A DNA stretch of 64,000 bases from a virus, in the IMG/VR virus record IMGVR_UViG_3300032315_000979, positions 32,001 through 96,000 of that record, one strand, 5' to 3'. Below, piece by piece: positions 400-57,107 of the stretch; the first letter of the stretch is position 1, and the number at the start of each line of letters is the position of its first letter. The position numbers and the translations under genes are program-made. Below the pieces are notes generated by a model, which saw only the letters and a program-made list of their open reading frames with translations, was not told where the DNA came from and ran no database searches.

Positions 400-699
400 A
401 TGACTAATAAAGAAACAAGTGTAACATCTAAAGAAATTAATAAACCAAAGAAGGCTGTAGCAAAAAAAGTTGCAGTGAAAAAAGAAATTACTCAAGAAAA
501 CATTTCTGAAGAAGGAAGGGTTTTGATTGTGTTTGAAAGTGGAGCTGGGTATTCAACTGCATCTGGATTCCGTTTTTCACAAAGAAATAAAATGGGCTTG
601 CTTCCAGCAGAAGAAGCCAACTTGCTTCTTGCATTGGATAATTTTAGATTACCTAGTGATGAAGAAAAAGAAATGTATTATACTAATCAGGAGGATTAA
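400..699 (+). CDS. Small capsid-adjacent protein: Lys-rich N-terminus plus a ~50-aa domain shared with GT4 55030-56286
   Basis: Directly follows the capsid gene. The SGAGYST...NFRxPxDxE motif recurs at 56125-56265. Confidence 0.75.
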   Translation: MTNKETSVTSKEINKPKKAVAKKVAVKKEITQENISEEGRVLIVFESGAGYSTASGFRFSQRNKMGLLPAEEANLLLALDNFRLPSDEEKEMYYTNQED

Positions 700-701
700 T
701 A

Positions 702-1085
702 ATGGCAGGCAATCTTACAAACTATCTTGAGAATAAACTGATTGATCATTTTCTTGGAACGACAACATATACCAAACCTACGAATGTTTATGTAGCGCTA
801 TTTACAGTCGCACCATCTGATGCAGCTGGTGGAACAGAAGTTACTGGTGGTTCATATGCTCGCAAAATTGCAACATTCACCGCTGCTTCAAGCGGTGCAA
901 CATCAAATGATGGCAATATTGACTTTACAGGAATGCCAGCAGTAACAACTGTAGCAATTGGTATTTTTGATGCAATTACAACTGGAAACATGTTGTTGTA
1001 TGGAACACTTACAACAAATAAAACAACAGATGCTGGGGATACTTTAAGAATCGCAACTGGCGATCTTGATATCAGCATTGACTAA
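702..1085 (+). CDS. Virion structural/fibre-associated protein
   Basis: SD GGAGG. The pattern NYLENKLIDH...YVALFT..P.DA.GGTEVTGGSYAR is common in phage minor tail/fibre proteins. Confidence 0.65.
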   Translation: MAGNLTNYLENKLIDHFLGTTTYTKPTNVYVALFTVAPSDAAGGTEVTGGSYARKIATFTAASSGATSNDGNIDFTGMPAVTTVAIGIFDAITTGNMLLYGTLTTNKTTDAGDTLRIATGDLDISID

Positions 1086-5229: not shown

Positions 5230-5625
5230 GTGAAAAAATACGAAATCAAGCATACAATACACGGTCCAGCTGTAATCTATGAAGGAGAAATTCTTTTTTT
5301 AGATCAAACTTTGAATTTTTTTGATATCATTGATGAGAATGCAGAGTTTTTGTTTGATATAACAGATGCTCTAATATCAAACATCAAAGAAGAGGTTGGA
5401 TATTTACTGTCAGCACTAGAAGACCGCCATCCAGCTAATGTTGGACCAGCCTATGCTGTAATTGGATCAATAAGCCATTACTGGAGATTGGTTCATAACG
5501 AATACCCAGAGTATAGTCAAGCAATGCTTAAGGCTAAAGGCGAAGAAAACACATGGGATATGAATAACCAAAACAATGCTTTGATTCACAAATTTTACAC
5601 AAAAGGAAAATTAAATGATAATTAA
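5230..5625 (+). CDS. Hypothetical protein
   Basis: GTG start 6 nt after TGgTAGTAT. Overlaps the next gene. Confidence 0.6.
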   Translation: MKKYEIKHTIHGPAVIYEGEILFLDQTLNFFDIIDENAEFLFDITDALISNIKEEVGYLLSALEDRHPANVGPAYAVIGSISHYWRLVHNEYPEYSQAMLKAKGEENTWDMNNQNNALIHKFYTKGKLNDN

Positions 5626-6223
5626 TCCAAATTTCCATTATAGCGTAACTCATCCGTTTATTGCTTTAAGTAATGTTTTTACTAGCGATGAATGTGATTT
5701 GATATCTGAAATTGGCAATCGTTTGCCAATGGTTGACTCTGTTGTTGGTGGTGAAAAACCAACTCATACCCAACACAGACAGTCAACAAATTCTTTTATG
5801 GAGCCAAATTCAGAAACAGAATGGATTTTTAATAGAATTATTGAAGCATCAACTTTTGTTAATGAAAGATATTTTCAATATGATTTGTACGGATTTTCTT
5901 TTTTGCAATACACAGAGTATTGCGACAAGTTAGATCACTATAACTGGCATATGGATATTGATCCACTTAGGGATGTCCAGAGTGGTCATATTGCACTCAC
6001 TAGAAAATTATCAGCAAGTGTTATTTTAAGTGACCCATCTGAATATGAAGGTGGTGATTTGGAAATGTATATTAATCTAGACACAACGGCGGAGCATACA
6101 GTTGCTCAGGAAAAGGGAGGAATTATTTTTTTCCCATCATATGCAATGCATAGAGTCACGCCAGTATCTGATGGATTAAGAAAAAGTCTTGTTGTTTGGA
6201 TAGAGGGTCCAAGATTTAAATGA
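5615..6223 (+). CDS. 2OG-Fe(II) oxygenase, prolyl-4-hydroxylase/PKHD-like
   Basis: Motifs WHMD, RKLSASVILSDP.EYEGG, FFPSYAMHRVTPV..G.RKSLVVW. Confidence 0.9.
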   Translation: MIINPNFHYSVTHPFIALSNVFTSDECDLISEIGNRLPMVDSVVGGEKPTHTQHRQSTNSFMEPNSETEWIFNRIIEASTFVNERYFQYDLYGFSFLQYTEYCDKLDHYNWHMDIDPLRDVQSGHIALTRKLSASVILSDPSEYEGGDLEMYINLDTTAEHTVAQEKGGIIFFPSYAMHRVTPVSDGLRKSLVVWIEGPRFK

Positions 6224-6954
6224 GTTTAGATATTAGATTTATTCCAATTGGGAAACTAGCAGCTACAACAACACCAAGTCCAAAACCAGCAAAAAATTAT
6301 ATTCCTGAGTGGTGGAAAAAGATTGATTCATATATTGGTGGAAAAGCAGATTTTCTATCTGACTCAAGCCTCAACACTACAGTAAAGCATTGTATGCCGT
6401 ATATTGATGCGCTCACTGGTGGTTATATTCAAGAACTATCAACTGATATTTATGTAGACATAAAAAAAGATGCGGATAATAATTTTGTTATTAAGATAAA
6501 TCATTCCCTTCAAATTCCAGGTCTTGCCCCCATAAAATACCGAACATATCCTAAAGATGCTTCAATTCAAAAATTTCCAGAAGGCTACTATCCAATTGAA
6601 TTCACTTGGTCTGAAAACTGGGTAACTGACACCCCAGATGGGTGGTCAACATTATATACTCATCCTATGAATAGATATGATTTACCTTTTATAACACTGT
6701 CTGGTCTGGTTGATACGGACAGGGGTAAGGTTAATATTGATGGCTCAATCCCTTTTTATATCAAAGATGGGTTCTCTGGGGTTATTCCAGCGGGGACACC
6801 TATCTATCAAATGCTGCCTGTTAAAAGAGAGTCCTGGGTGTCTGATGTTGAAGAGTATAGTGAGTATAGATACTTTAGAGATCTTCCCAGATTAAAAAAA
6901 TACTTTACTGGTGGTTATGTAAAAAATATTTGGCACAAGAAGAGGTATGAGTGA
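6220..6954 (+). CDS. Conserved phage protein of oxygenase clusters (DUF6065-like)
   Basis: Motifs PKPA..YIPEWWK, T.KHCMP.IDA...GY, TP.GWS.L.THPMNR, SG.VDTD, IPAGTPI.Q..P.KRE.W. Confidence 0.6.
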   Translation: MSLDIRFIPIGKLAATTTPSPKPAKNYIPEWWKKIDSYIGGKADFLSDSSLNTTVKHCMPYIDALTGGYIQELSTDIYVDIKKDADNNFVIKINHSLQIPGLAPIKYRTYPKDASIQKFPEGYYPIEFTWSENWVTDTPDGWSTLYTHPMNRYDLPFITLSGLVDTDRGKVNIDGSIPFYIKDGFSGVIPAGTPIYQMLPVKRESWVSDVEEYSEYRYFRDLPRLKKYFTGGYVKNIWHKKRYE

Positions 6955-7706
6955 TGAAATCAAAAGAATCAAATGAAATAATTGTTTACTGGGCTCCCTG
7001 GTGGACTCCAGAACCTGGTATTAATCTAGACATTGTATATCATGATCCAGTAAATATATACAAAGATTTTATTTCAAGAGGCGACCCTGATAGACCGTAC
7101 CCAAACTTCATCAATTGCCCAGCTGTTTCTGAAAAGTTTAAACGAACTTTTATGGTTAAAAATGTTGCTGAAACAGCTTTGCGTTGTGATCTTGATGAAA
7201 ATAAAGAAATTAAAATTAGTTATTTAAATTCTAGAACAACAAATAGTGCTGCGGGTATTCGTCATCAACCAACCTTAAAAGAAAATCTTTTGTTTGAATA
7301 TCACATGGCATATGCGCTATTTTCAGAAGAAAGCCTAACATTGGCAACTAGCTCTCCATATTTCCATAAAACGCCTCATTTACAGTATGGTGCGCTAGTT
7401 CCTGGGTCTTTTGATATTGGTCGTTGGTATAGACCGATTATTGCAGAATTTAATTTATGGACAGACAATGATTACTTCCATATTCAGCCAGACGAGCCAT
7501 TAATGTATTGGGAATTTTTTACAAACAAAAAAATTATCTTAAAGCGATATGAAAGAACTCAAAAGCTTTATGACATTACTAGTTCTGTAATAAATTTTAA
7601 ATTGGTAAAGAGGGGTTCCAACCTTCTTTCAAGATATAAAAAATTTGATGAATCATCTTTAAGAGCTATAATTCTTAAAGAAATTAAAGCTAATTTGGTG
7701 GAGTGA
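6951..7706 (+). CDS. Conserved hypothetical protein of oxygenase clusters
   Basis: Motifs CPA, PG.FDIG.WYRP, DEPL.Y. Translationally coupled to its neighbours. Confidence 0.55.
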   Translation: MMKSKESNEIIVYWAPWWTPEPGINLDIVYHDPVNIYKDFISRGDPDRPYPNFINCPAVSEKFKRTFMVKNVAETALRCDLDENKEIKISYLNSRTTNSAAGIRHQPTLKENLLFEYHMAYALFSEESLTLATSSPYFHKTPHLQYGALVPGSFDIGRWYRPIIAEFNLWTDNDYFHIQPDEPLMYWEFFTNKKIILKRYERTQKLYDITSSVINFKLVKRGSNLLSRYKKFDESSLRAIILKEIKANLVE

Positions 7707-7709
7707 TAA

Positions 7710-9182
7710 ATGAATATTGTCATTGTTGGTTCTGGTACAGCTGGTTTAATATCTTGTATATATTTAAAACAGGCTTTCCCAAAATATAATATAAAAGTTA
7801 TATCATCATCTTCAATCGGTATTATTGGTGTTGGTGAAGGCTCAACTGAGCACTGGAAGCAGTTTCAGGATTATTGCGGCATTGACCCTCACGACATGGT
7901 TATCAATACTGATGCTACTTATAAACTAGGTATCAAGTTTGAAAATTGGACCAAGCATACTCGTGAGTATTTTCATAGCGTTAATTCATCTGGAGCTCTG
8001 CATAAAGGAGGCTTTATACCAAGTTACGCAGATGCTGTTTTGAAAAATGAGTTATTAACAAATAGATTTTCATCTCTCGGTATTAATAAAAATGAAATTG
8101 ATGATGTTCAAAACCATCCTCACTATGCAAATCAATTTCATTTTGATACATTCAAAGTTAATGAATATCTTACTAAAGTTGCAAAATCAAGAGGTATTGT
8201 TTTTGTTGATGATGAAGTAACTTCTATAAAAAGAGATTCTGAATCTGGCTTTATTACTAAGGTTTCTTTGAAAAAAAATAGAGATATTAAAGGTGATTTT
8301 TTTATTGACGCAAGTGGATTTAAAAGGATCTTAGCAAGTGAATTTGACGATCAAAATTTTGTTTCATACGAAGAATATCTCCCATGCGATTCAGCAATTG
8401 CTTTTCCAACAGAAAGTGATCCTTCTGGTCAGATTAGACCTTACACTAGAGCCATCGCAATGAATTCTGGATGGGTTTGGGAAATTCCTACTCAAAAAAG
8501 AAGAGGAAATGGATATGTGTTTTCCTCCAGGTATGCAACTGAAATAGATGCTGTTGATGAGTTGTCTAAAATTTTTTCTCGTGAGATTATTCCAGCCAGA
8601 TCATTTAGGTTTAAACCTGGATATTATAAAAAAACTTGGCAGTTTAATTGCGTTGCAGTCGGTCTTGCTGCGTCTTTTGTTGAGCCATTAGAGGCAACTT
8701 CAATTAGCACAACTATTCAGCAAATTATGATTATCTCATCTCATCTATCTACATTTAATAATAAAACAAAATTTGGTATTGATGAATATCATAAACATAT
8801 GGATTCTGTGATGGAAAATATTTTGGCAATGATTTCAATGCACTACATTTCTGACAGAGACGATACAGACATGTGGAAAGACCAGAAATACACCAAGAGA
8901 CCAGATCTGGTTAATAGGTTACTAGGTCTCTGGCAAGAAAGACTTCCAGAAGCTCAAGACATCCCAAGGACTGGATTTGAATTATTTCACACCTATCACT
9001 TCTATCACATTGCTCAAGGTCAGGGGTTGATCAATACAAAAAATGCAAAAGCTCAATTGGATGCATACGATGCCAATGCTGTTATAAAAGATTGGTATGC
9101 TCAATACAGCAAGCAAAGATCTGCTAAAAAACTGATAGATCACGGAAAAGCTTTGAAGGGTCTGTATGTTGGAAATAGATAA
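7710..9182 (+). CDS. Flavin-dependent halogenase (tryptophan halogenase family)
   Basis: FAD motif GSGTAG, IGVGEGST, ATYKLGIKF (catalytic Lys position), FHFD, WVWEIP (WxWxIP) and FVEPLEAT. Confidence 0.9.
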   Translation: MNIVIVGSGTAGLISCIYLKQAFPKYNIKVISSSSIGIIGVGEGSTEHWKQFQDYCGIDPHDMVINTDATYKLGIKFENWTKHTREYFHSVNSSGALHKGGFIPSYADAVLKNELLTNRFSSLGINKNEIDDVQNHPHYANQFHFDTFKVNEYLTKVAKSRGIVFVDDEVTSIKRDSESGFITKVSLKKNRDIKGDFFIDASGFKRILASEFDDQNFVSYEEYLPCDSAIAFPTESDPSGQIRPYTRAIAMNSGWVWEIPTQKRRGNGYVFSSRYATEIDAVDELSKIFSREIIPARSFRFKPGYYKKTWQFNCVAVGLAASFVEPLEATSISTTIQQIMIISSHLSTFNNKTKFGIDEYHKHMDSVMENILAMISMHYISDRDDTDMWKDQKYTKRPDLVNRLLGLWQERLPEAQDIPRTGFELFHTYHFYHIAQGQGLINTKNAKAQLDAYDANAVIKDWYAQYSKQRSAKKLIDHGKALKGLYVGNR

Positions 9183-9738
9183 CTTTATTCCAGAATTTTA
9201 TCAAGACTCAATTTTAAAAACACTGTCTGAGTCAAATATTCAATGGTTATATGTTGATGGGGTTGCTGGAACAACGACTGATGTCAACACTCCTGGAGTT
9301 CAGATGTCACAGGACCAAACTGCATTCTACCATGTCGCTTTCAGAGATGGCAAGCCAGAATCTCATTTGTTTTATACACTTAGACCGATGATAGACGCAA
9401 TTCAATATCAAATTAAAAAACCAATATCTGATCTGTCTAGAATAAGAATAGGTCTTACTACATCATCATTCCATCCTGGACATCATGCTCCACATGTTGA
9501 TTTTTATGCAAGGCATAAATCTCTGCTATACTATGTAAACGATAGTGACGGAGATACTGTCTTTTACAATGAGCATTACAATGGTGATACCAGTGTAAAG
9601 GATTTTACTGTTCAAAAAAAAGTTACTCCTAAAAAGGGTAAAGCAGTATTTTTTGATGGCTTTCATTATCACAGCTCTGGAGTTCCACAAAAAACGCTCA
9701 AGAGAATGGTGATCAATATAAATTACAGGGATGACTGA
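9166..9738 (+). CDS. 2OG-Fe(II) oxygenase
   Basis: PHVD...YYVNDSDGDT...PKKGKAVFFDG..YHSS..P....R.VININ. Confidence 0.85.
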   Translation: MLEIDNFIPEFYQDSILKTLSESNIQWLYVDGVAGTTTDVNTPGVQMSQDQTAFYHVAFRDGKPESHLFYTLRPMIDAIQYQIKKPISDLSRIRIGLTTSSFHPGHHAPHVDFYARHKSLLYYVNDSDGDTVFYNEHYNGDTSVKDFTVQKKVTPKKGKAVFFDGFHYHSSGVPQKTLKRMVININYRDD

Positions 9739-10304
9739 TGGAAGTTGTAGACAATTTTTTACCAAGATTTTATCAGGAAACAATATATAAAAGTATATTG
9801 CTTGAGCAAACACCGTGGACTATTATTGATGAAATTAGTGGTGCAAGCTCCGATGTAGATATTGATGGCATAAAAGTATTAAAAAAACAAACTGGTTTTT
9901 ATCATATGTGCTTCGGTGACGATCAGGTTTACTCAAATCTTTTTTACACTATAAGACCAATTCTTGATGCGATAGAGCACTACTGCAATAAGCCAATTGA
10001 AAGTCTAATTAGGGTTAGGGTAGGCATGTTTACCAAATCATCAGAATCTGGAACAAATTCACCGCATGTAGACTTTTCTGACGAGCATAAATCTTTTCTA
10101 TACTATGTAAACAATAGTGACGGAGATACTGTTTTTTATAATGAAAACTATAAAAACATAAAAGATGGAAGTGGATTTAGTGTAAAGCAAAAAGTGTCCC
10201 CAGTAATGGGTAAAGCTGTTCTTTTTGATGGGCTGCAGTATCATAGCTCTTCACCACCAGTTCTTAACGACAGAAGAGTTGTTATTAATATAAATTATTT
10301 GTGA
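9738..10304 (+). CDS. 2OG-Fe(II) oxygenase (paralog of the preceding gene)
   Basis: PHVD...YYVNNSDGDT...GKAVLFDG..YHSS.PP....R.VININ. Confidence 0.85.
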   Translation: MEVVDNFLPRFYQETIYKSILLEQTPWTIIDEISGASSDVDIDGIKVLKKQTGFYHMCFGDDQVYSNLFYTIRPILDAIEHYCNKPIESLIRVRVGMFTKSSESGTNSPHVDFSDEHKSFLYYVNNSDGDTVFYNENYKNIKDGSGFSVKQKVSPVMGKAVLFDGLQYHSSSPPVLNDRRVVININYL

Positions 10305-10311
10305 GGTACAG

Positions 10312-10941
10312 ATGTTTAAAGTTGTAGATAATTCAATTCCATTTCATTTTCAAGAATCTCTAAAACAGATGGTTCTTGATCCAGACTTGCCTTGGTCATA
10401 TGCTGAACATTTTTCATCAGATGGTTTAAGAAACAATCCTAAGAGGACAAAGTTTATTTCAAAAGGTATGGATTTTGAAAGAAGTTATGGTTTTAATCAT
10501 AATATTTACTTTTATCAAAATAATATGGAAATACAAAAAAGCCCCCTGTTTGACCGCTTCTACCCAGTTGTGTATTCATGGATGGATCAAGTTGATATTG
10601 TTAGAGTGATTAGAATGAATTTAAGATTAACAACTAAAATTACAGATAAACCAGTTGTTGATGAACCGCATGTTGATTACAGCGATAAGGGGATTTGCAC
10701 TGTAGTTTATTATCTTTTTGATACTGATGGTAAAACAATTTTCTTTGATAGAAAATTTGAAAAAGGCGATCCTTCACAAGATGAAATTGAACTAACACCT
10801 CTGCACTCAATATCACCCAAGCAGGGTCGTGCTGTATTTTTTGATTCTGATACTTATCACTCAGCATCTCATCCATCAATGACAAATAATAGAATAACCC
10901 TCAATGTTCAATATCTAAGCTCGGAGTTTAAAGGTGCTTAA
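10312..10941 (+). CDS. 2OG-Fe(II) oxygenase (third paralog)
   Basis: PHVD...YYLFDTDGKT...PKQGRAVFFDS..YHSA..P....RITLN. Confidence 0.85.
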   Translation: MFKVVDNSIPFHFQESLKQMVLDPDLPWSYAEHFSSDGLRNNPKRTKFISKGMDFERSYGFNHNIYFYQNNMEIQKSPLFDRFYPVVYSWMDQVDIVRVIRMNLRLTTKITDKPVVDEPHVDYSDKGICTVVYYLFDTDGKTIFFDRKFEKGDPSQDEIELTPLHSISPKQGRAVFFDSDTYHSASHPSMTNNRITLNVQYLSSEFKGA

Positions 10942-15719: not shown

Positions 15720-16909
15720 TGGCGAATACGCTGAGAATTAAAAGAAGGGCGACTGGCAGTGCTGGCGCACCTACAAGTTTGGAGAATGCAGAATTAGCAT
15801 TTAACGAAGTAGATAATATTCTTTACTACGGTAAGGGAACTGGTGGCGCAGGTGGATCTGCAACCACTGTTGAAGTAATTGGCGGTCTTGGTGCTTTTCT
15901 TGCTTTAACAACTGATCAAACAATTACTGGCAACAAGACATTTAATGGCACAACGATTGTCGCAACTCCAACTGCAAACGGTCACGCAGCTACTAAGCTT
16001 TATGTTGATAGTGCAGTTGCCAATGTCGCAACTTCGTTTACAGCGGCTGGCGATAGCGGCACAGTCACTATCTCTAGCGGAACTGACACTCTTACAATTG
16101 CTGGTGGAACTGGTTTAACATCGTCAGCAGCATCTGTTGATACGATTACACTTAATCTTGATAACACAGCAGTTACGGCAGCTAACTACGGTGCGGCTGG
16201 ATCTGTTGCAACATTCACTGTTGATGCACAAGGTCGTTTAACTGCTGCTGCAAACACAACTATTTCAATCACTGCTTCACAAGTTAGTGATAGAGCAACA
16301 AACCTTGTAACGGGTTTGACAGGAACTGCAAATGAAATTGCAGTATCAAACTCTGGTGTTGGTGCAGTAACACTTAGCCTTCCAGCTAATGTTACGATCA
16401 GTAATAACCTCACAGTTTCTGGGGATTTGATTGTTAATGGTAATACAACAACTCTTAACACAGCAACACTCGTTGTTGAGGATAAGAACATTGTTCTTGC
16501 AAATGTTGAATCACCAACGGACACGACAGCTGATGGTGCTGGATTTACAATCAAAGGTGCAACAGATAAGACATTGAACTGGGTTGATGCTACTGACGCT
16601 TGGACATCCTCTGAGCACTTCAATATTGTTTCTGGTAAGTCATTCTACATTGGGGGCTCGGCTGTACTTTCAAATACAACTTTGGCTTCAAGTGTCGTTA
16701 CCTCAAGTCTTACATCTGTAGGTACAATTGGTACAGGTGTATGGCAAGGAACTGCTGTAGCAATTGCTTATGGCGGTACTGGCTCTGCAAATGCTTCTGA
16801 TGCAAGAACTGCATTAGGTCTTGCAATCGGTTCAAATGTTCAAGCCTACAGCGCTCAGCTCACAGCACTTGCTGCGAACACTGCTACAATTGATGGTGGT
16901 ACTTTCTAA
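15719..16909 (+). CDS. Fibre protein segment
   Basis: N-terminal RIKRR....AP.SL...ELAFNE domain, ATKLYVD and TVDAQGRLT motifs. Ends IDGGTF. Confidence 0.75.
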   Translation: MANTLRIKRRATGSAGAPTSLENAELAFNEVDNILYYGKGTGGAGGSATTVEVIGGLGAFLALTTDQTITGNKTFNGTTIVATPTANGHAATKLYVDSAVANVATSFTAAGDSGTVTISSGTDTLTIAGGTGLTSSAASVDTITLNLDNTAVTAANYGAAGSVATFTVDAQGRLTAAANTTISITASQVSDRATNLVTGLTGTANEIAVSNSGVGAVTLSLPANVTISNNLTVSGDLIVNGNTTTLNTATLVVEDKNIVLANVESPTDTTADGAGFTIKGATDKTLNWVDATDAWTSSEHFNIVSGKSFYIGGSAVLSNTTLASSVVTSSLTSVGTIGTGVWQGTAVAIAYGGTGSANASDARTALGLAIGSNVQAYSAQLTALAANTATIDGGTF

Positions 16910-23983: not shown

Positions 23984-24273
23984 GGAATGAGATTCCCCTT
24001 CTCAAATATGAATCAGAAATATTTGTACAGGTCGGTGCATGGAAAAATCTAGAGGAGTTAGAGGAATCTCTAATCCTTCATGAGATGTTTCTATTGTACC
24101 GAGCTTGTACCAATGAATTCAGTAAGAATATCAAAGCACTCGCCTTGGCTCAAGGCGCTGATGTTGACTTTGAAGATGACTGGTACTCGCCAGAAGATAG
24201 AGTACCAGATGAGCCAATGAGACCATTTGAAGTAATGAACTTCGGCATTCCATTGGGATATCAAGCAGATTAA
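23938..24273 (+). CDS. Tail assembly chaperone extension (T part of the G-T fusion)
   Basis: The -1 frame reads PKPINGDGEGGEPLSWNEIPLLKYESEIF... No obvious SD precedes the TTG at 23977. Confidence 0.75.
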   Translation, partial: PKPINGDGEGGEPLSWNEIPLLKYESEIFVQVGAWKNLEELEESLILHEMFLLYRACTNEFSKNIKALALAQGADVDFEDDWYSPEDRVPDEPMRPFEVMNFGIPLGYQAD

Positions 24274-24321
24274 TGATTGCTGATTATCTAAAAAAATGGG
24301 ATAATATTTGTTGGTACAAAC

Positions 24322-27300
24322 ATGTCTGATGTTGATCTAATAATTAATGTACATACTAATGGCGTTAAGGATATTACTAACCTTAGTGCTGCCACTAGAG
24401 CCTTAGCCCTCAATCTAAGGGGTATTACAGTACCAATGAGCAAGCTTGATGCTCACAGCCGAGCTGTGAACAAAGCTCTTGGAATGACAAACAGAAGCAT
24501 GAATGATCATGCAAAGACTGCCAAGCAGATGATTGCAAATCAGAAGGCTCTGAGTGCAGAAACTAAGCGTGTTCAATCAAACATCAAGTCATACGCTATG
24601 GCTATTCAATCAGCTGGTGGTACAACCACAGCGTTTGGTAGAGAGCTGATCCAAAGCAGGAATGAATTAAAGCAATTTAGTTCAACCCTAAGAGGCTTGC
24701 GAATTAGAGCATTTGGCTCAGACCTTGGTTCAATATCACTAAAACTACAACGAATTGGTAAAGACGCACAGTTTGTTGGTAGAAGCTTGATGATTAACCT
24801 CACAGCTCCAATCCTTCTATTTGCAAGAATGGGCTTCCAGAGCTTGTTGAAGGTTGATGAGCAATTTGTAAGATTGACAAAGGTTCTTGAAGGCGTTGCT
24901 ATGACAACCGATCAAGCAAACTCAAAGCTTAAAGATTATCTTGGTCCAGACAAGGAGAAGAGAGTCAAGCAAATGACCGACTCCTTTAGAGAACTAAATA
25001 CCGCTTTGACCGAGCAAAGCGCAAGATTCGGTGTCGCAAAAGATTTAGTAGTTAGTCTGGCTGTTGATTTTGCAGAACTTGGTGTTACTGCAAATGAAAA
25101 TATTGTAGCACTTACTGAATTAGCATTAGCTGCAGAAAAATTGGGAGGAATGGATGCATCTGGTGCGCAAGATCTATCCTCAGCCTTGTTCTTTAATGCA
25201 ACGAGAGCATACGAGGTTGCTGGTGCATTTGATGATGTAACAACAGCTGCTGAGCGTGAATCTAAAGCTATAGCGTCAGCAACAGTTCAGCTCAACATGT
25301 TCAACACAATTGAAAATGTCACCGCACTTTCATTGAAAGACCTTGCTGATTCACTACCTGAACTTGGAGGTATGGCGCTAAGTTTCGGACTATCAATGAC
25401 AGAAGCAGCCGCTCTGCTTGCACCAATGAAGGCTGCTGGTTTTGATATTGGCGCATCTGCAAACTCAATTAAAGTATCTTTGCAAAGAGCAATTGTTCCA
25501 ACTAAGCAAAATGTTGAACTACTAGCAAAACTTTCTAAGCAATATGGTGTTACTGGCAAATCTGGTAACGCATTTAGCGAATCAACAAAGACTGGTCTAA
25601 CAGGACTTCAAGCTATTGTTGATATTTTTGGAAAAGTTGTTGAAGGTGGAAAAAACACTGAAGCTGGACTGAAACTGATGTCTGAAATATTTGAAAAGCG
25701 TCAGGGTCCAAGAATGTATGTTGCTATTGAACAATTGAATCAGTTTGATGCTGCTTTGAAAAATGTTAATGCTAATCAATCACCAGAAAGATTGATGGCA
25801 GGTGTTGCTGAAGCATCCATTAGAGCCTTTAATAAACTTAACGGCACAGCACTCCCAGAAACAATAAGTCAGTTTAGTGATATTGGTGTTATCGCAAGAA
25901 TTGCTACTGCTGAAGTTGGAGCATTAGTTGATGGGTTTAAAGGCAAAGGTGCAGGCGGTGGTATTACAGCAGCAGAAAAGAAAGGTGCTATGGAGGCACG
26001 AGATGCTGTAGCCAAGCTGATTAAAGAGAAGAAATTAAATGAAGATATTGACTTAATCAGCCAAGTTAAAACACAGGCTGGTCGTGCTCTGCTTGTTGAG
26101 CTTGCAGGTGCATCTGGCGCTGCGGATGTAGCAAACATGGAATTAGAGCAGTCATTGAAATCTCTTTCGGTTGCTACTCAGAGAATAAAGATTGCATTTA
26201 AAAACTTTGCTGCAGATGTGCTTAGAAATGTAGCTCCATCACTAAAGAAGTTGTCTGATACGATCAACAGTCTTTATCTAAAATGGCAAGCACTAAGTGA
26301 CACAACAAGAGAAAGAATATCCAAATTAATTCTTGGCTTCCTCGGTTTCTTAGCAGTAATGGCACCAGTAATTCTTGCATTAGGAACAATGCAATCATCT
26401 ATCGGTGTGCTTGGAAGAACCGCTACATTCTTCTTACCGAAGCTAAAGAATTTTGAAGGTGGTCTTGTAGGAATTGCTGGTGGAGCAAAGAAAGCAACCA
26501 CGGCAATGACAGATATGTATAACAGTTTCCTTGGCAAGAAACAACCACTTTCTATGCTTCCAAGTTTTGCACCTGCTGGCGGTACAGCATCATCAATGAT
26601 TGGTATGCCAACAAGAGTTGGTCGCAACATCACACTCCCTGGCAATATTGCTCCAACCCCAACACCACTAACTGGACTTACAGGCGCTGCTAGAACAAGT
26701 GCCATCAATGCAAACAGAGCAGCGAGGCTTTCTCATGCAGCAACAGGAAGACTGGGTGTAGATCAGTATCTTAGAAATGAAGCAAGTATGCTTTCTGCTA
26801 ATAATATGCGACTTAATGCTCGTGGTCGTGTAATTGGTCCAAGGGGTGGTTTTGTTGGTGGTAACATTCTTGGAAAAATTTCTGAAGCATCAGTATTAAG
26901 AGAAGCCGCTCTTGCGGATTCTGGAATCTCTAGAACAATGTCTGGAGGCGCAAGGCTTGCTACAAAGAGAGGCTTTGTAGATGTTACTGAAGACAGAGCA
27001 TTAAGAATTGCTCGTGGTGGTATTGGTGGTGCAATAGCAAGAAGAACAGCGGCGCTTCCTGGTTTGGCTGATTCATTTACTTCAGCTACTGGCGTAACAG
27101 GAAGAGGTTTTGCAAGAGGAATGCTACCTACCCGTGGAGGGATCGCAACTGGTGCAGGAAATGTTAGAGGTTTAGCGTCAGCTGCATTTAACGCTGGTCC
27201 AGTTGCTGCTTACACAAAGTCGGTGCAAGGTGCTAAAGCTGCAGTTCAAGCAATGAAGATTGAACAGATGGCTTTGGGTGGTAGCGCTGGAAAAATTAGA

Positions 27301-30300
27301 ACAATGTCAACTGCAATGACTGGTTTTATGAAAGCTACAAAGCTTGGAACGGTTGCTCTTAAGTTAATGAAGATTGCTTTGATATCAACTGGTATTGGCG
27401 CAATCATGCTGGGCATCGGTGTTGCTGTTTATATCATTGTTAAAAACTTTAGTGCTTTTAAAGATAAAGCATCTAATGCAATACTAAGAGTCAAGAACGC
27501 ATGGGCAATATTTAAAGAATCTATTGGGATGCTAATTCAGCCTTTTGTAGATTTGTTTTCAATAATCGGTGGTGGTTCTAAGAAAGGTGGAGATGCTGTT
27601 GGCGGTCTTGCAAGCGCATTTGATTTAGTTGGGAAAGTACTACAGAAAGTAGCTTCTTGGTTTAAGATGCTGGTTGAAAACTTTATTCAGCCATATCTGT
27701 ACATGATTATTGATATTGTAATGTTTGTTGTTTCAATATTCCAAGGCAACTGGGGTAAAGCTTTTGATTACCTTGTTGCCGCTACCTCTGGTGCAGTAAA
27801 GATTGTTATTAAGTTAATTGCCGCTTTGCTAAAAGGAATGGTGTGGATCACCGCTGGTGGAATTAAGTTGATAATCGGATACTTTACACTAATTCCAAAA
27901 GCTGTTGCTAAAGTGTTTAGTTTCCTTGAAAGAATTCCAGGTGTTGGTGGAATATTTGGATGGATTGGTGACAGTATCAATTTCGTTATTGACGGTCTTT
28001 ATGGATTGGTTGATGCGGGTAAAAATGCTGCTAGTGGTGCCATTGATGCAGTAGCTAACGCAGCAACTGGATTGCTAGATAAGGGCGTATCTAAGGGTAT
28101 CAGCTCAGCCGAGGGTAAAATCAGTAATGATACAAAGATTAAAGACGCAGCAGAAGAAACTGGTGAAGAAGCTGGCGAAATCATGGGTAACTCCTTTGGT
28201 GATGGCTTTGAAGAGTCTGACGCTACTGGAAAAATTGCAAAAGCCATTGAAGAGGGCATTGTTGATGCCATTCAGAAACTTCAAGATTATGTTGCTGGAG
28301 AGATGGCAGATGCATTAACTAAGTTTGTAGATGCATCCGTTAAGGCTCTTGAAAAGCAAAAAACATCTGCTCTAAAAGTATTTGATGTCCAAATCAAAAC
28401 ACTTGGTAAGCTTGAAAAAGCAGAAGAATCGCTTACCAAGAAGAAAGAATACGAAAATAATAGAAGAAAGATTATTGACAACCAAGCTCTTAGTAATGAG
28501 CAGTTCCGTAGAAACTATGCATTGGCTGTTTATGAAGGTCGTGTTGATGACGCAAGAATGCTACAGCTTCAGCAGAGCGCTGATGAAAAAGGATTTAGTA
28601 GTGACCTTTTAACAATTGAGCAAGAAAGGTCAAAGGATCTCGCAAAAGAAAACCTTGATGCTCTCAAGGAAGCTATTAACGAAGCAAAAGATGCAGCTTC
28701 ATTATTCTTTGAAGAATCAATTGCTAAGTTCCAAGAGTCTGCTGCTCTAATTACAAAGGTTGCACCAGTTACTGTTGAACAATATACGGCGCAACTACAA
28801 GAACTTCAAACATTAACAGAAACAAACGCTACCAATATGAATACAACATTTGGTGCGATGTTTGAAATTTTTGCAACCACAATTGCAGACAAGATGCCAA
28901 ACAAGGTTATTGGACCATTTGCAACAAATCTTGACGAACTTGTATTAGTAGCAAAAGAAAAATTTGGTCTTGGATCTGATAAGAGTGAAAACACTGTAAT
29001 TGGTATTACTATCGGAATGCTCGCTGGAATGGGAGTACAGTTTGGTGAAGGAAAGCAATTAGTAATTGATTCGTTCGGTGTAATAACATCTGGTCTCGCT
29101 CAAAACTTTACGGATATGAAGACCAAGTTCTTGGATGAGGTTAAGAGCGATTTCATTACAAACTTTAAGAAGGCACTGGATGAAGCAGAGCCAACAAAGG
29201 TTTTCAATCAAGCAATCATTGATGGAAACCTAAGCATCCTTAGAAGCTTCCAGAACATGGTGGATCTAAACCCAGCACTGATGGAGAAGTTAAGAAAGAG
29301 TCTTGATCCAGCAATTAATAAATACCTTGAACTAAAAGCAGCCGCAGATGCAGCAAAAGATGCAGCAGGAGCTGCAGCAGACGCAGCAGCAGGCGGTGGG
29401 GGCGGTGGTGGTGGAGGTGGAGGCACTGGTTCCCAACCAGGACCAGGAACACCTGCAGGTGGAAGAGCAGATGCATTTGCAAGAAATAATGAACTCAGAG
29501 CTGCCAGAAATCTAAGAGCACTTACATATCAAGAATTTATTGGAAATTACAAGGGCTTCAAGAAGGGTGGAATAATTCCATCAAGAACGCAAAATCAAAA
29601 TCAAGGGTATCCAGAGGGCTTCATCCCAGCTCCAACACAAGAAGGTGTACCAACGCTTCTTCATGGTGGAGAATACATTCTTAATGCGAAGGCGGTTTCA
29701 AGAATCGGTGTAGGTGCTTTGAATAAGATGAATAATAACCTTATTCCAAAATTCCTTAAGGGTGGTCAGGTTCCAGGTGGAAAGAAAGGTACAGCTTCAA
29801 ACACAAGAGGAACGGCAGATCGTCTTGAACAGAAAGTTACCAATAAAACATCTGCTTCGCCAAGTTCATTAAAAGCTCCAATAGACTTGTCAAAAATTCA
29901 AGGCGTTACTTTAAAACCGACTACACCTGTTAGTCCAAAAATTCCAGGAATTGCAACACCTGGTCACACCTATAGCTCCTCAGAGATAAAAAAACTTACA
30001 ATGCGACCAAACACTTATTTGGTTCCAGCCCCATCTTTCACATCCCCTGGAACTAAACAAGCGCCTAAAGAGTTCTTCCAAGTTGCAACAAGACAAGAAG
30101 CGCTTTCTTATGCACAAATAAAAATGCAAAATGATGCTAAGGCAGCACAAAGAGCAGAGCAAGAAAAGTGGACAACATGGGAAAGATTTATTGGTCAAAA
30201 CACAGTTAATGGGGTCTCAACAATAGGTGGTCCATATAAACAATCGGGTATTGCAAGTGCAATTGAAAAATTCCCACTCGCAGGACTTCTTGTAAAAGAT

Positions 30301-52500: not shown

Positions 52501-52956
52501 GTATACGCTTTGATTGGAGATAGAACACTTCATTCTTTCTGTGATGCTTATAATTTCATCGGCTCAGACTTGCATAAGTTTATTACTCTTAGACAAAAGG
52601 GTGATAATCATGAATACAACTGGCTGTATGATACTGGTCTTGGTCATGTTGATGAAGAAAAGACTCTTATGTATGTTATGCACTCAAGAGTCTTTACAAC
52701 ATCAAAAGATAAGACAATGGCTAACATGTATTGCTGGGATGGAAAGCAGATATTTAAGGTTGTTATTTTCCCTAGACCATATACCAAGCTCAAGGGTATT
52801 ATCAAGCAGGGACAATGGTATGCAGCAAGGCTTTCAAAGATTGAGGAAAAGCAAACTCTAACTCGTATGGACTCATACAAGGTGGAATCTGACTCTGCTA
52901 TTATTAGCATTGAAAATTATATTGAAAGAAAAAATCTGGTCAAAGCTATTGTCTAA
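49558..52956 (+). CDS. dnaE: DNA polymerase III alpha subunit
   Basis: PHP domain HLHCHSEHSLLDG, GRGSVGGS, PDIDLDF, HAAG, KIDILGL, FNKSHAVAY. Confidence 0.95.
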   Translation: MTEFVHLHCHSEHSLLDGMSTPEEIAQMSSSNGQFAAAITDHGTMAGVLRFQDACQKHAVRPVFGVEAYFVPSVKNDGDGKHERFHLILLAKNNIGLNKLFKMSQIGWQDNFYYKPRIDFDLLEDMVDDDIIALSGCRGSSISKAIEAGDYGRAEQLSERFVKIFKDDFYFELQAWNPKEINDGLLDLASSFGKKAVATADCHFPTHADKGVEEVLLLVSQYPSIGAQTINAAKENLATLHTCGPDLIDRVNHLYPDRYLRFDDINPYIADATTVLSWFKEAGYDRQDILENTIEVASKCSAEIVKRRNLLPKYMKSLNSDEYLSELTNFRLKELNLGDEYKTRLDEELGIIKQLGFSDYFLIVWDLISWADANGIGRGTGRGSVGGSVMAFLLNITKVDPIKYNLLFARFINPDRNDYPDIDLDFEDKRRNEVKSYLRERWGRDNVAAITTYGTFKPKSAIKDVARVLQVSYEETNNITPFFETIEELMESSKGKIFCNKYPDVPKVAKRLEGRIRNAGVHAAGMVVSSIPLSEVCPIETRKETDGGERVMVTAFDMTDAEAVGLIKIDILGLKTVSVIKDCLAKIKERTGLDVEAQSLSLDDQAVFTNFNNGNTVGVFQTDAAAYRNLIERMGIDDFKDLVVSNALVRPGALLSQGQKYIDCKKGFTEPYYPDKSVKDILEETYGTVIFQEQLMQMSVKISGFTWSDADKLRKIIGKKRDVAEFKQYKDKFINNAIIPKTEAKQMWSEFEMSALYMFNKSHAVAYSMLSYQTMWLKVNYPLEFIWSLLYNEDSSEKITAYLMEAQRLKINILPPDVNYSEEYFTTYDKDGVEGIRFGLSNVAGCGASAIKEITSKRPFNCLDEFNNKCSKSAVKAPLRENLEKVGAYASLNHVSQYQHERYYLPVLGFSIQSGEEKNEMDEFVGNLADFHEINSSLTLIKAIVRSTKKTPQYLRIEFEDHSGSATVFADRNTEMANRDYVYALIGDRTLHSFCDAYNFIGSDLHKFITLRQKGDNHEYNWLYDTGLGHVDEEKTLMYVMHSRVFTTSKDKTMANMYCWDGKQIFKVVIFPRPYTKLKGIIKQGQWYAARLSKIEEKQTLTRMDSYKVESDSAIISIENYIERKNLVKAIV

Positions 52957-53678
52957 TGAAGTTAACTATATACATTCCTACATATAAAAGAGAATCTCTT
53001 GATGCTTGCTTAAATAGTATTGCATCACAGCACAATGACCATGTTGAAATTATTGTCTCTGATAACGACCAGGATGGCTCTGCGGGAAACATAGTTTATA
53101 AATATAAAGATTATGTATCTGAGTATTCAATTAGAAAACAAAATATTGGCTGTGATGGAAATTGTTTACATGGAATCACAGCTGGTGATGGAGAATATGT
53201 ATGGGTCGTTGGGGATGATGACATTATCCTACCAGGGGCTATAGATACTATTTTATCAATGCTTGATGGAACAGACCGCATAATGCAATTTTCACCGTAT
53301 TCTGGTGAAGTAACACCTGGGTTTTCTGGTACAATGTCTGGGTTGATAACTACACTTAATGATAAATCATTTTTAATTGCTGCGACATTGGCAAGTATGA
53401 ATGTGTGGAGAAGGGATGCTATGGACTTTAGAACAGGAGTAAAGCACTTGGATTCTAGAAATGTTTTGGCTTGGGCTGGTCTCAACTGCAAGACAGTTAG
53501 TATTCCAAGTACTCCAACAGTTTTGGTTAATGATACTAATCATTTTGAATTTAGGGATTTTGATCGGGTTATGTTTGAATACTCAGATGCACTAGCTGAT
53601 GCTAATAGTGTTGAGAGATTTACTTTTTATAATGCAAATAAATGGAATTTCGTTAGCGCTTCATTGGAGAAAAAATGA
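52956..53678 (+). CDS. Glycosyltransferase family 2
   Basis: LTIYIPTYKR, EIIVSDN, NIG...N, GEYVWVVGDDD. Confidence 0.85.
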   Translation: MKLTIYIPTYKRESLDACLNSIASQHNDHVEIIVSDNDQDGSAGNIVYKYKDYVSEYSIRKQNIGCDGNCLHGITAGDGEYVWVVGDDDIILPGAIDTILSMLDGTDRIMQFSPYSGEVTPGFSGTMSGLITTLNDKSFLIAATLASMNVWRRDAMDFRTGVKHLDSRNVLAWAGLNCKTVSIPSTPTVLVNDTNHFEFRDFDRVMFEYSDALADANSVERFTFYNANKWNFVSASLEKK

Positions 53679-54109
53679 TTGTATATACAGGTGGAACATT
53701 TGATCTATTTCATTCGGGTCATAGTAGATTACTAGAGAGATGTAAGAAAATAGCTGGCGTTGATGGTCAAGTAGTGGTGTCAGTTAACCCAAGCGAGTTC
53801 TGCTCTCAATATAAAGAACCACCAATTTGTGATTTGTTTGAAAGAATGGAAGTTGTGTCTTCTTGTAAATGGGTGGATAAAGTTATCATCAACACAGGTG
53901 GGGCTGACTCAAAACCTGCTATCCTAGAGGCAAAAGCAGATGTCATTGTTGTCGGCTCAGATTGGGAAACCAAAGACTATTTTAAACAAATGGACTTTAC
54001 CCAAGAATGGCTTGACGAGCATAATATTAAAGTTGTCTTTGTTCCTTACAGTGAACATATATCAACAACAATTATTAAATCAAGAATTCTAGACAGAATG
54101 TTTCAATAA
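53675..54109 (+). CDS. Cytidylyltransferase (TagD/RfaE-like)
   Basis: GGTFDLFHSGH, WVD.V, GSDW, ISTT.IK. Confidence 0.9.
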   Translation: MIVYTGGTFDLFHSGHSRLLERCKKIAGVDGQVVVSVNPSEFCSQYKEPPICDLFERMEVVSSCKWVDKVIINTGGADSKPAILEAKADVIVVGSDWETKDYFKQMDFTQEWLDEHNIKVVFVPYSEHISTTIIKSRILDRMFQ

Positions 54110-54118
54110 AGGAGAAAT

Positions 54119-55033
54119 ATGTTAATTGTAGATAAGCGTAAAGGGCACACAATGCCCATTCATGATGTTATTCCAACTCCCAGCATCGGTTTGAATCGGG
54201 CTTTAGGTGGCGGACTTAATACTGGTGCGACTCACTTGTTTTGGGGTACTCCATCGGTGGGTAAAACGACTATGTGTTTTCGGATTATTGCCGAAGCCCA
54301 AAAGCTTGGGTATCGCCCCGTTATCATTGACTCGGAGTCATCTTATAATGATGAGTATGCTGCCAAGTGCGGGATTAACATTGAAGATGTTGTAATCATT
54401 CAATCAACGATTGTAGAAGACATCATGAAGAATCTGATCGGATATCTGACGGATGATAAGGAGAAGCATATCTTCTTGTTTGACTCGCTGTCTAACATCA
54501 TCAAGGAAGAGTTCTATGATAAGCCTGAAGGTGGTAAAGCAATGGGCTTGCAATCACGCTCGCAGGGCTACCTGTTGCAGAAGCTGGTGAACTATCTCCA
54601 TAAGGAGCGCAACATCATGTTGTTCGTTGCTCACCAAACAGTTGACTTGAGCGGAATGTTTGCTATCACGAAAGCCAAGATGGGCAACACGGTTCACCAT
54701 AACATGCACAACATCGTCAAGTTGTTCTTGTCAATGTCAAAGGGTGAAATGGAGCGTGAGGAGAATAACATGATCACCTCGCAACGAGCGACTTGGACTG
54801 TTGAAAAGACAAAGCAAATTCCTACCATCGGGGCAACGGGATATTATTATGTTCTGCCACAAGAGGGAAGAATTGACCAAGAGCGTGAGATTATTGATAT
54901 TGCCATTGAGATGGATATTATTCAACGCAAGGGTGCCTGGTATAACTATGAAGAAAGCAAATGGAATGGTATGGGCTCAATTGAATTGACTGCCAAACAG
55001 TCAAAGGATATCCTCAAGCTCATTAATGCGTGA
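54119..55033 (+). CDS. recA: RecA/UvsX-like recombinase
   Basis: TPSIGLNRALGGG, Walker A GTPSVGKT, IDSE, FDSL, I..KGAWY.Y. Confidence 0.9.
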   Translation: MLIVDKRKGHTMPIHDVIPTPSIGLNRALGGGLNTGATHLFWGTPSVGKTTMCFRIIAEAQKLGYRPVIIDSESSYNDEYAAKCGINIEDVVIIQSTIVEDIMKNLIGYLTDDKEKHIFLFDSLSNIIKEEFYDKPEGGKAMGLQSRSQGYLLQKLVNYLHKERNIMLFVAHQTVDLSGMFAITKAKMGNTVHHNMHNIVKLFLSMSKGEMEREENNMITSQRATWTVEKTKQIPTIGATGYYYVLPQEGRIDQEREIIDIAIEMDIIQRKGAWYNYEESKWNGMGSIELTAKQSKDILKLINA

Positions 55034-56286
55034 TATTTTCAATCCATACTGATCAGCATATTAAAGATGCAAAAAGTATATTTGGCTACGCCTATGGATA
55101 TAACAACATTGTAAAGCACTTTAATCAGTTCACCTACTATGGGAAGCAAATGCAGGTTGTTGATAACGATCCGTCTGCACAGGTTCAGATGTTTTATATG
55201 GAACCAGAATGGCATCACCATATAACTGGTCAGGATTTTCGTCAGCCTGGATTTAAAAAACATCATGACCATCAGTACAAGATTAATGGTACATACCTAG
55301 AAGCAACCAAAGCTTGGGAATGGTGGATTCCCACCATGAAAACATTTGATGAGATCTGGGTGGGCAATCAATTCTCTGCAGATGCAGTTGCTAACTCTGG
55401 TGTTGATACCCCTACATACATCTTTGAATTAGGCGTTGATGATATGTGGACACCTTTTAAAAGAGGAAATCGGGGAAAGATTAGATTCCTTCATGTTGAC
55501 TCCGATAGTGCTCGCAAGAGAGCAGATCTTGTTGAAGCAGCCTTTCTTAAATTATTCAAGGGTAATGATGATGTTGAACTTACATTAAAGTATCACGGCG
55601 ATGGAAGTCCAGATGGTTACAGCGTCATGAGTCTGTTTAATCAATCTGCTGAGAGTAATGTTAAGAAGATATTTAAAACTATTACGCAAGAAGAGATGGT
55701 TCAGCTATATCACGATCATGACATCTTGGTGTACCCAACAGAGGGTGAAGGGTTCGGGCTAATCCCTCTCCAGGCATTAGCAACAGGTATGCCTACCATT
55801 TCAACAAGTAGATGGTGTTCGTATGAAAAATATCTTGGTGACAATATTATTGAATCAACGCTTGGTAAAACACAACACTCTGGTTATCATACTGGCGATG
55901 TTATTCTTCCAGACTTTGACTCAACCGTTGAGTTGATGAAGAATGCGGTTGATAATTTTGATGCTCAGTGTGATTACTATTATAAGCAAGCTCCTAAGGT
56001 CATTAAAGAATACAACTGGCAGTCTCAGTGTGACAAGATGCTTAAGTCTTTAATTAAGCGTGTTGGGATAAGTATGTTTGAACCAATTGAGGGCGTAGTC
56101 AGGGATAAGTACATATATCTTCAAAGCGGGGCTGGATATAGCACAGGCAATGATGTAAAATTCTCAAGAGAGAAGCCGATACAAAAGGTTTCCGATGATG
56201 AGTATAATTCTTTAATTAGAAATCCTAATTTTAGAAAACCAACCGATCAAGAGATTACAAAATATTTAGGAGGCTATAATGGATAG
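55030..56286 (+). CDS. Glycosyltransferase family 4 with an extra C-terminal domain
   Basis: DEIW, RKRAD, LY..HD..VYPTEGEGFGLIPLQALATGMPTI, YNW. The C-terminal ~55 aa resemble ORF 400-699. Confidence 0.9.
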   Translation: MIFSIHTDQHIKDAKSIFGYAYGYNNIVKHFNQFTYYGKQMQVVDNDPSAQVQMFYMEPEWHHHITGQDFRQPGFKKHHDHQYKINGTYLEATKAWEWWIPTMKTFDEIWVGNQFSADAVANSGVDTPTYIFELGVDDMWTPFKRGNRGKIRFLHVDSDSARKRADLVEAAFLKLFKGNDDVELTLKYHGDGSPDGYSVMSLFNQSAESNVKKIFKTITQEEMVQLYHDHDILVYPTEGEGFGLIPLQALATGMPTISTSRWCSYEKYLGDNIIESTLGKTQHSGYHTGDVILPDFDSTVELMKNAVDNFDAQCDYYYKQAPKVIKEYNWQSQCDKMLKSLIKRVGISMFEPIEGVVRDKYIYLQSGAGYSTGNDVKFSREKPIQKVSDDEYNSLIRNPNFRKPTDQEITKYLGGYNG

Positions 56287-56662: not shown

Positions 56663-56839
56663 ATGGTTGTATCAAAAAAGAAATTAATCAAAGATGTCTC
56701 TAGATTAGAAAAAAAGCTTAGAGAAACTGAAAGCAAACTGCTTGCTATTCGTGTACAATACATCTTGATGAGAGCAGATCGTAATCGTCTGAAAGAAGAA
56801 TTAGGTGAAGAGAACAGAGAAGGAAGAGATCAAGCGTGA
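56663..56839 (+). CDS. 58-aa coiled-coil hypothetical protein (not in the ORF track)
   Basis: MVVSKKKLIKDVSRLEKKLRETESKLLAIRVQY... fills the intergenic gap. Confidence 0.5.
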   Translation: MVVSKKKLIKDVSRLEKKLRETESKLLAIRVQYILMRADRNRLKEELGEENREGRDQA

Positions 56840-57107
56840 CAACGCCAAGGCTGTCAAGAATTCGGGTCGGGGGCTTAGGAAAGGGGATGCTTCTCTTCAT
56901 AAGTTTTTGGTTGATTATAAGCATAATGAAAAAACTTTTACGCTAACCATCAAAGCTTGGACTAAGATGAGAAAAGATGCATGGAATGCAAACTATAAAT
57001 ATCCATGCATTTCTGTTGTTTTCGGAGAGAACTCTGAGTCAAAGGTCGCTATAATTGACTGGGAAGTATTCCAGGATTTAATTAAAGGAAGCGAATATGA
57101 AGCTTAA
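56805..57107 (+). CDS. PD-(D/E)xK Holliday junction resolvase-like nuclease
   Basis: E......KNSGRG..KGDA.....LVDYK. Confidence 0.75.
   Translation: MKRTEKEEIKRDNAKAVKNSGRGLRKGDASLHKFLVDYKHNEKTFTLTIKAWTKMRKDAWNANYKYPCISVVFGENSESKVAIIDWEVFQDLIKGSEYEA

Follow-up and report, generated by a model that had tools for sequence, protein, structure and literature searches.

A family 4 glycosyltransferase (GT4) of 418 amino acids (aa), encoded at 55030-56286 of a 64,000-nucleotide stretch of viral DNA, ends in an extra domain that is a true homologue of the C-terminal domain of a 99-aa protein, encoded at 400-699 of the same stretch directly behind the major capsid protein (MCP) gene. The stretch, called the window here, is bases 32001-96000 of the complete virus record IMGVR_UViG_3300032315_000979, which spans 108,687 bp with direct terminal repeats and has 37.7% GC; coordinates are those of the window, or, where prefixed G000, those of the whole 108,687-bp genome record. 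The MCP is 51% identical to the annotated MCPs of Streptomyces phages Yaboi and Tomas and the gene order is the same, so the phage is, judged by sequence, a low-GC freshwater relative of the Streptomyces Stanwilliamsviridae lineage of actinophages. The explanation we favour, tentatively, is that a gpFI-like adaptor domain was duplicated onto the GT4, and that the resulting tail steers the glycosyltransferase to assembling heads for glycosylation of the head surface.

The homology of the two copies is clear by several measures. Residues 43-93 of the small protein align without gaps to residues 362-412 of the GT4, with 20 of 51 positions identical (39%; BLASTP E value 9e-10). An earlier reading made from the letters alone (the sequence-only reading) had counted 19 of 47 by hand, a similarity that BLASTP bears out, and the two peptides it quoted do lie at 538-678 and 56125-56265. 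A hidden Markov model (HMM) built from small-protein domains alone (n=38) detects the glycosyltransferase tail with an E value of 7.9e-12, and one built from glycosyltransferase tails alone (n=42) detects the small protein with an E value of 5.5e-14. When these class-specific models were run against 1,707 six-frame open reading frames (ORFs), the next-best match reached only an E value of 0.08-0.8, and the whole genome contains no third copy of the domain. These reciprocal matches, with no other scoring ORF, establish real homology and exactly two genomic copies. Since there are only two, the domain is absent from a second GT4, a paralogue on the plus strand (60318-61382) that is 27% identical to the tailed enzyme and had already been read as domain-free, and from a third GT4, which lies before the start of the window (G000 24060-25073; 260-1270 of locus L160). 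Copy 1 (526-696, plus strand; aa 43-99) is strand-rich and then helix-strand-helix in an AlphaFold2 (AF2) model (mb215ed45d7dd; mean predicted local distance difference test score (pLDDT) 87.7), and AF2 gives the same order of strands and helices for copy 2 (56110-56268, plus strand; aa 361-413). The positions conserved in both copies are G, Y, T, G, F, L, FR, P and S/T-D-x-E.

The tailed enzyme, on the plus strand, scores above the Pfam cut-offs for Glycos_transf_1 (PF00534, 35.3 bits; cut-off 26.4) and Glyco_trans_1_4 (PF13692, 35.8 bits; cut-off 27), and matches phrog_2170 with an E value of 3.8e-43. Its AF2 model (meb993fc735b5, pLDDT 84.3) divides into a GT-B catalytic body (55030-56064, plus strand; aa 1-345), recognised by its predicted secondary structure and by Foldseek matches to GT4 and GT-B proteins, a variable, lower-confidence linker (56065-56109, plus strand; aa 346-360; pLDDT 66 for the block 351-360), where identity drops fastest among orthologues, and a separate domain at 361-413. 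The sequence-only reading had placed the domain beyond the normal end of the GT-B fold, rightly: glycosyltransferase family matches stop near residue ~341, the tail is modelled as a domain of its own, and orthologues without it end near residue ~354. Foldseek returned at least 500 GT-B matches at E<=1e-3, headed by a chlorovirus NY2A glycosyltransferase (3oy2, E value 5e-12), 7qsg and MshA, and the protein-O-glycosylating enzymes SdgB and GtfA are also present; these GT4 neighbours of the predicted structure do not by themselves single out an acceptor. The E-x7-E donor-binding motif reads E240-GFGLIPL-Q248 (55741-55773), with the second Glu replaced by a Gln that is nearly invariant among orthologues and is likewise found in the second GT4.

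The other copy belongs to the head module. As the sequence-only reading had it, the small gene is preceded by the major capsid gene, which encodes a 348-aa HK97-fold MCP (G000 31253-32299, with its 3' end at 3-299 of the window, plus strand), identified by phrog_1623 (E value 3.6e-83), Pfam Phage_capsid (E value 9.5e-9) and the MCPs of Yaboi and Tomas. After a spacing of 100 nucleotides comes the small gene (400-699, plus strand), whose product consists of an N-region rich in Lys (aa 1-~40) and the conserved C-terminal domain, followed by a gene for a Gp80-like head fibre or head protein (702-1085, plus strand; PF23140 E value 1.1e-38; phrog_240 E value 1.6e-29). The order before the small gene is third GT4, ribonucleotide reductase, portal, 83-aa ORF, 607-aa prohead protease/DUF6321 and MCP. 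In each of the 76 related viral-contig loci that reach far enough upstream (76/76), an MCP homologue ends less than 400 nucleotides before the small gene; two minus-strand loci flagged by a script proved on inspection to have the same gene order. The Gp80-like gene is the downstream neighbour in 78 of 80 loci. Among cultured phages the small-protein family occurs only in the Streptomyces Stanwilliamsviridae, where the order is portal, small ORF, protease, MCP and then the family member; Yaboi gp53, Tomas gp55 and Sham gp26, which represent three genera and two subfamilies, lie directly behind the annotated MCP. These phages were reached only through more distant members of the family: neither the first 8 kb of the window (megablast) nor the small protein itself (tblastn) had a match among 50,697 phage records.

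The small protein matches phrog_9487, a family of unknown function, with an HMM E value of 5.9e-6, and 66 of 86 family representatives match it as well (best E value 2.4e-18); neither the window protein nor its 86 relatives have a Pfam family match over the domain. Homologues of the small protein form 106 clusters, with lengths of 59-141 aa. They share a two-part architecture, in which a disordered-looking N-region precedes a ~55-aa alpha/beta C-domain that always stands at the extreme C-terminus (a median of 2 residues follows it). The N-regions are variable and of low complexity. A basic patch of Lys, Ala and Pro is common among them, matches to histone-H1-like HC2 or SAP domains occur in a few, and GRP (AT-hook-like) motifs in some. 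When 1.84 billion representatives were searched with a profile of the domain, there were 106 hits at E<=1e-3, nearly all of them small proteins (60-150 aa) that carry the domain C-terminally, and the remaining context is the tailed GT4 lineage. The stand-alone copies beside capsid genes that the sequence-only reading predicted were therefore found, the small gene following an MCP gene wherever this could be checked, and the same search did not show the outcome it had named as fatal to its idea, namely a domain spread widely without regard to capsid genes. Fusions to other enzymes, which it had also named as possible support, were not found: the GT4 is the sole fusion partner among the 1.84 billion representatives.

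Some long repeat proteins (P0125, P0195 and others) came up as candidate fusions and were rejected, as only 13-34 profile positions were matched, in many stretches, which marks them as motif or low-complexity matches. P0125, a metagenomic protein of 792 aa, has ten copies of a ~44-aa unit with the pattern F-R-x-P-T-x-D-E-I that matches the domain profile over its final third only, probably at the level of a motif.

Orthologues of the tailed glycosyltransferase were found in 79 viral-contig loci, and the tail is kept down to 55% glycosyltransferase identity. Two orthologue sets are cleanly tail-less, L123/L124 (84% identity) and L146 (60%): their genes (L123:2501-3565, L124:2501-3565 and L146:2501-3565) stop within the linker, with no remnant of the tail in any frame. 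The ORF that comes next in L123/L124 is homologous to window 56805-57107, which means that the MazG gene and a small ORF were deleted too. Such clean loss in two orthologue sets marks the tail as accessory rather than catalytic. The ratio of nonsynonymous to synonymous substitution rates (dN/dS, Nei-Gojobori) is 0.07 for the glycosyltransferase body and 0.18 for the tail, so that the tail is under purifying selection yet evolves faster. A word-based search with the tail returned only its own 95% cluster, a result that reflects the limited sensitivity of the method, since scans of the loci show the tail across the clade. The GT4s of Streptomyces phages (25 listed records) are 33-36% identical to the tailed enzyme over residues ~13-345, and their match stops at residue ~341-365, leaving the domain region unaligned; the fusion is therefore specific to the freshwater clade. 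In a domain tree built by a quick method from few columns, in which monophyly of the glycosyltransferase tails is not resolved, all of these tails cluster with the small proteins of their own lineage, and a branch with a Shimodaira-Hasegawa-like approximate likelihood-ratio test (SH-aLRT) value of 98 sets this group off from 55 distant small proteins. As far as sequences can tell, the simplest history would be a duplication of the 3' part of the small gene onto a GT4 in the ancestor of the freshwater clade.

Both copies are present in three of the three distant relatives whose records are complete enough. This strict co-occurrence, together with the origin of the tail from the small protein of the same lineage, is what would be expected if the two copies hetero-oligomerised and the glycosyltransferase rode piggy-back on the small protein or used it as its acceptor. 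We nevertheless regard such pairing as distinctly improbable: nothing points to oligomerisation, and the two classes of domain evolve at very different rates, with a mean identity of 72% among small-protein domains and 44% among glycosyltransferase tails.

If instead the tail is a capsid address, as we favour, the 99-aa protein would be a gpFI-like adaptor for head assembly or packaging, with a flexible N-region that bears a basic, DNA-binding-like patch and a ~55-aa C-terminal globular domain that would dock on the procapsid or capsid shell. An ancestor of the freshwater clade would have copied the 3' domain-coding part onto the end of one GT4, behind a flexible linker, and the tail would then serve as an accessory address module that concentrates the enzyme at assembling heads. 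There, with the untagged GT4s, a family 2 glycosyltransferase (GT2) and a cytidylyltransferase, it would glycosylate a head-surface protein. The GT2 (52956-53678, plus strand; Pfam Glycos_transf_2, E value 2.5e-14) and the cytidylyltransferase-like gene (53675-54109, plus strand; CTP_transf_like, E value 6.3e-18) are possible partners in the synthesis of a glycan or an activated precursor. Glycosylation of virions by phage glycosyltransferases is established in actinophages (PMC12363180). Binding of the capsid by the C-domain, retention of this partner by the glycosyltransferase copy and the choice of a virion protein as acceptor are inferences on our part. The sequence-only reading had likewise proposed a capsid address tag, an idea that is plausible and partly supported: the homology, the adjacency to the capsid gene and the placement of an extra module on a complete GT-B enzyme stand in its favour, and the position of the tailed enzyme outside the head module stands against it. 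It is more doubtful that the C-domain is in general a portable folded capsid-address module that phages copy onto enzymes to direct their action to the head under assembly, by which this GT4 becomes docked on the capsid to start or complete a head-surface glycan.

The comparison with lambda gpFI rests partly on fold. The top fold match of the domain is YqbF (PDB 2HJQ; VIA Z-score 4.7, 22% identity over 51 residues; by Foldseek, TMq 0.58, root-mean-square deviation (rmsd) 2.3 A over 46 residues, E value 2.2), and the C-domain of lambda gpFI (PDB 2LSM) is matched with a Z-score of 3.6 and an rmsd of 2.0 A over 43 residues. The C-domain of gpFI is reportedly its head-binding part, and YqbF-like prophage proteins are said to have been proposed as structural relatives of gpFI. 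The nearest Pfam-named cluster in the ESM Atlas is Packaging_FI, with a weak score of 0.75, a level at which matches often arise by chance. Gene position, two-part build, fold matches and this language-model lead are weak lines that converge on a gpFI-like head-binding adaptor. The small protein may thus work like a gpFI-type adaptor, but we do not class it as a member of the gpFI family, because sequence and profile similarity is lacking and the fold Z-scores are tied with those of unrelated folds, as detailed below.

In the literature gpFI is presented as a packaging chaperone linking the capsid with the terminase-DNA complex, and adaptors of the gpFI type touch both (PMC13595911). The shared domain might bind the terminase, the portal or the DNA end at the packaging vertex instead of the capsid shell, and bring the glycosyltransferase to the packaging machine; the small protein ends in a conserved acidic helix, and a putative terminase region lies directly after the second GT4. 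We consider this quite unlikely, as the gene whose synteny with the small gene is conserved is that of the MCP, not those of the terminase or portal, and the motor offers no obvious acceptor for a glycosyltransferase.

Several observations weigh against a capsid address on the glycosyltransferase. The fold Z-scores of the domain are tied with those for the N-domain of ribosomal protein L9 and the B-domain of GINS, unrelated small folds, and therefore the fold does not discriminate. The domain has no match to gpFI (PF14000) or YqbF in Pfam at E<=1, hhalign of the 86-sequence family against lambda gpFI gave a probability of 0.35%, the PF14553 (YqbF) HMM found nothing at the locus (its sole match in the genome is an unrelated stretch of 13 residues, E value 0.018), and sequence and profile searches of the PDB with the family alignments gave chance hits or none. 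The gpFI homologues among the matches listed are at least 86% identical, too shallow a set for a better profile. The residues common to the two copies look like core and helix-cap positions, mostly structural, so that a common partner is inferred rather than demonstrated, and the glycosyltransferase tail does not retain the acidic last helix (SDEEKE.YY) that is strongly conserved in the small protein. Identity among the tails falls to 17-33%, against ~80% for the MCP, and the tailed enzyme sits in the replication module, with genes of replication and recombination around it and MazG beside it, away from the head module. Retention of the partner by the glycosyltransferase copy is accordingly the weakest step of the proposal.

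The same observations lend themselves to an explanation by reuse of the fold alone, in which the tail would serve acceptor or membrane recognition, oligomerisation or stabilisation of the glycosyltransferase, and the target would be a polymer of the host envelope or another non-virion molecule. The structural look of the shared positions, the fast divergence of the tail, its loss in two orthologue sets and the location of the gene outside the head module all fit, and the nearby GT2 and TagD-like cytidylyltransferase recall envelope-polymer pathways. A generic stabilising or binding fold would, however, be expected in other contexts too, and among the 1.84 billion representatives the domain occurs in none besides post-capsid proteins and the tailed glycosyltransferase; moreover, purifying selection on the tail holds across the clade. 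Fold reuse alone thus seems unlikely to us, though it deserves to be taken seriously.

The surroundings of the tailed gene suggest a further alternative, in which the domain binds nucleic acid, the enzyme glycosylates phage DNA and the small protein is a DNA-condensing head protein. The gene order here is DnaB-like helicase, primase, Pol III alpha, GT2, cytidylyltransferase, RecA, tailed glycosyltransferase, MazG and RuvC, which puts the enzyme within a replication module, beside MazG, a 5'-nucleotidase-like gene and RecA; a cytosine methyltransferase-like ORF, as read from its sequence, adjoins the glycosyltransferase in some relatives, and the look-alikes of the fold include the RNA-binding N-domain of L9. 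Known DNA glycosylation, however, adds sugars to a pre-formed base hydroxyl (PMC13326640), and the genome has neither a thymidylate-synthase-type hydroxylase or hydroxymethylase (a ThyA or ThyX homologue) nor a C5-methyltransferase, so a DNA acceptor is unlikely; a search for Tet_JBP carries no information, as its control was silent. The DNA-binding-like motifs of family members, furthermore, sit in the N-region and not in the domain. We therefore hold this alternative to be very improbable and keep to a capsid address as the preferred explanation of the tail.

Other features of the genome may be recorded here. The glycan set of the phage comprises three paralogous GT4s, one GT2 and one cytidylyltransferase-like protein, with the extra domain on one GT4 only. 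The 607-aa prohead protease (L160:5615-7435; G000 29415-31238) combines an S78-like protease N-domain, DUF6321 (E value 2.3e-27) and ~350 further residues that are possibly a built-in scaffold. Inside the structural module lies an enzyme island (window 5615-10941) with four genes for 2-oxoglutarate (2OG)-Fe(II) oxygenases of the prolyl-hydroxylase type (PF13640; 5615-6223, 9166-9738, 9738-10304 and 10312-10941) and one for a flavin-dependent tryptophan halogenase (7710-9182; Pfam E value 9e-106). The island could hydroxylate or halogenate virion proteins, perhaps making glycosylation sites, or it could make a small molecule. A weaker match to the PF13640 oxygenase family, below the cut-off, is at G000 15731-16291 on the minus strand, and the window also holds an ORF of 3,676 aa at 24322-35352.

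It is known that phage virions can be glycosylated, but not how the responsible enzymes locate the structural proteins they act on. If our preferred explanation is correct, a folded docking domain common to a head-module protein and a glycosyltransferase would be a testable mechanism of recruitment, would give a first function to phrog_9487, a widespread unknown family with members in cultured Streptomyces phages, and would offer a natural tag with which enzymes could be loaded or displayed on HK97-type capsids. Should the domain turn out not to bind capsids, the two copies would still be a clean example of a domain captured within one genome and held under selection.

Among known systems, lambda gpFI is the closest in gene position and build. 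Its gene also directly follows the major capsid gene (E then FI), and it too is small and built of two parts, a flexible N-terminal one and a small folded domain at the C-terminus, but it has no detectable sequence similarity to the small protein, and we know of no enzyme with which it shares a domain. In YqbF of the Bacillus subtilis skin prophage, whose gene comes after yqbE, the capsid gene, a small domain is combined with a HeH/SAP-type motif. Some members of the small-protein family share this combination, but in YqbF the order is inverse, with the domain N-terminal and the HeH motif C-terminal, and there is no fusion to a glycosyltransferase. The Stanwilliamsviridae Yaboi, Tomas and Sham have homologous MCPs, GT4s and a post-capsid small protein, but in the 25 listed records their GT4s are without the domain fusion.

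For glycosylation itself, the nearest parallels are the mycobacteriophages Che8, Corndog and Myrna, whose virions are reported to be glycosylated (Freeman et al. 2023, as cited in PMC12363180). They share with the present phage an actinophage-type lineage, phage-encoded GT-B enzymes and capsid and tail proteins as proposed acceptors, whereas for the present phage virion glycosylation is a proposal and the tailed glycosyltransferase lies away from the structural genes. To our knowledge, no docking module has been described on the glycosyltransferases of Che8, Corndog or Myrna. Tags that direct proteins to capsids exist in the capsid targeting sequence of T4 (on internal proteins and Alt), the C-terminal tail of the HK97 prohead protease and the cargo peptides of encapsulins. 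These are alike in concept, in that a short module sends an enzyme to an assembling shell, but they are short peptides that load their cargo inside it, whereas the module described here is a folded domain of ~55 aa, taken from a head-module protein and carried by a glycosyltransferase.

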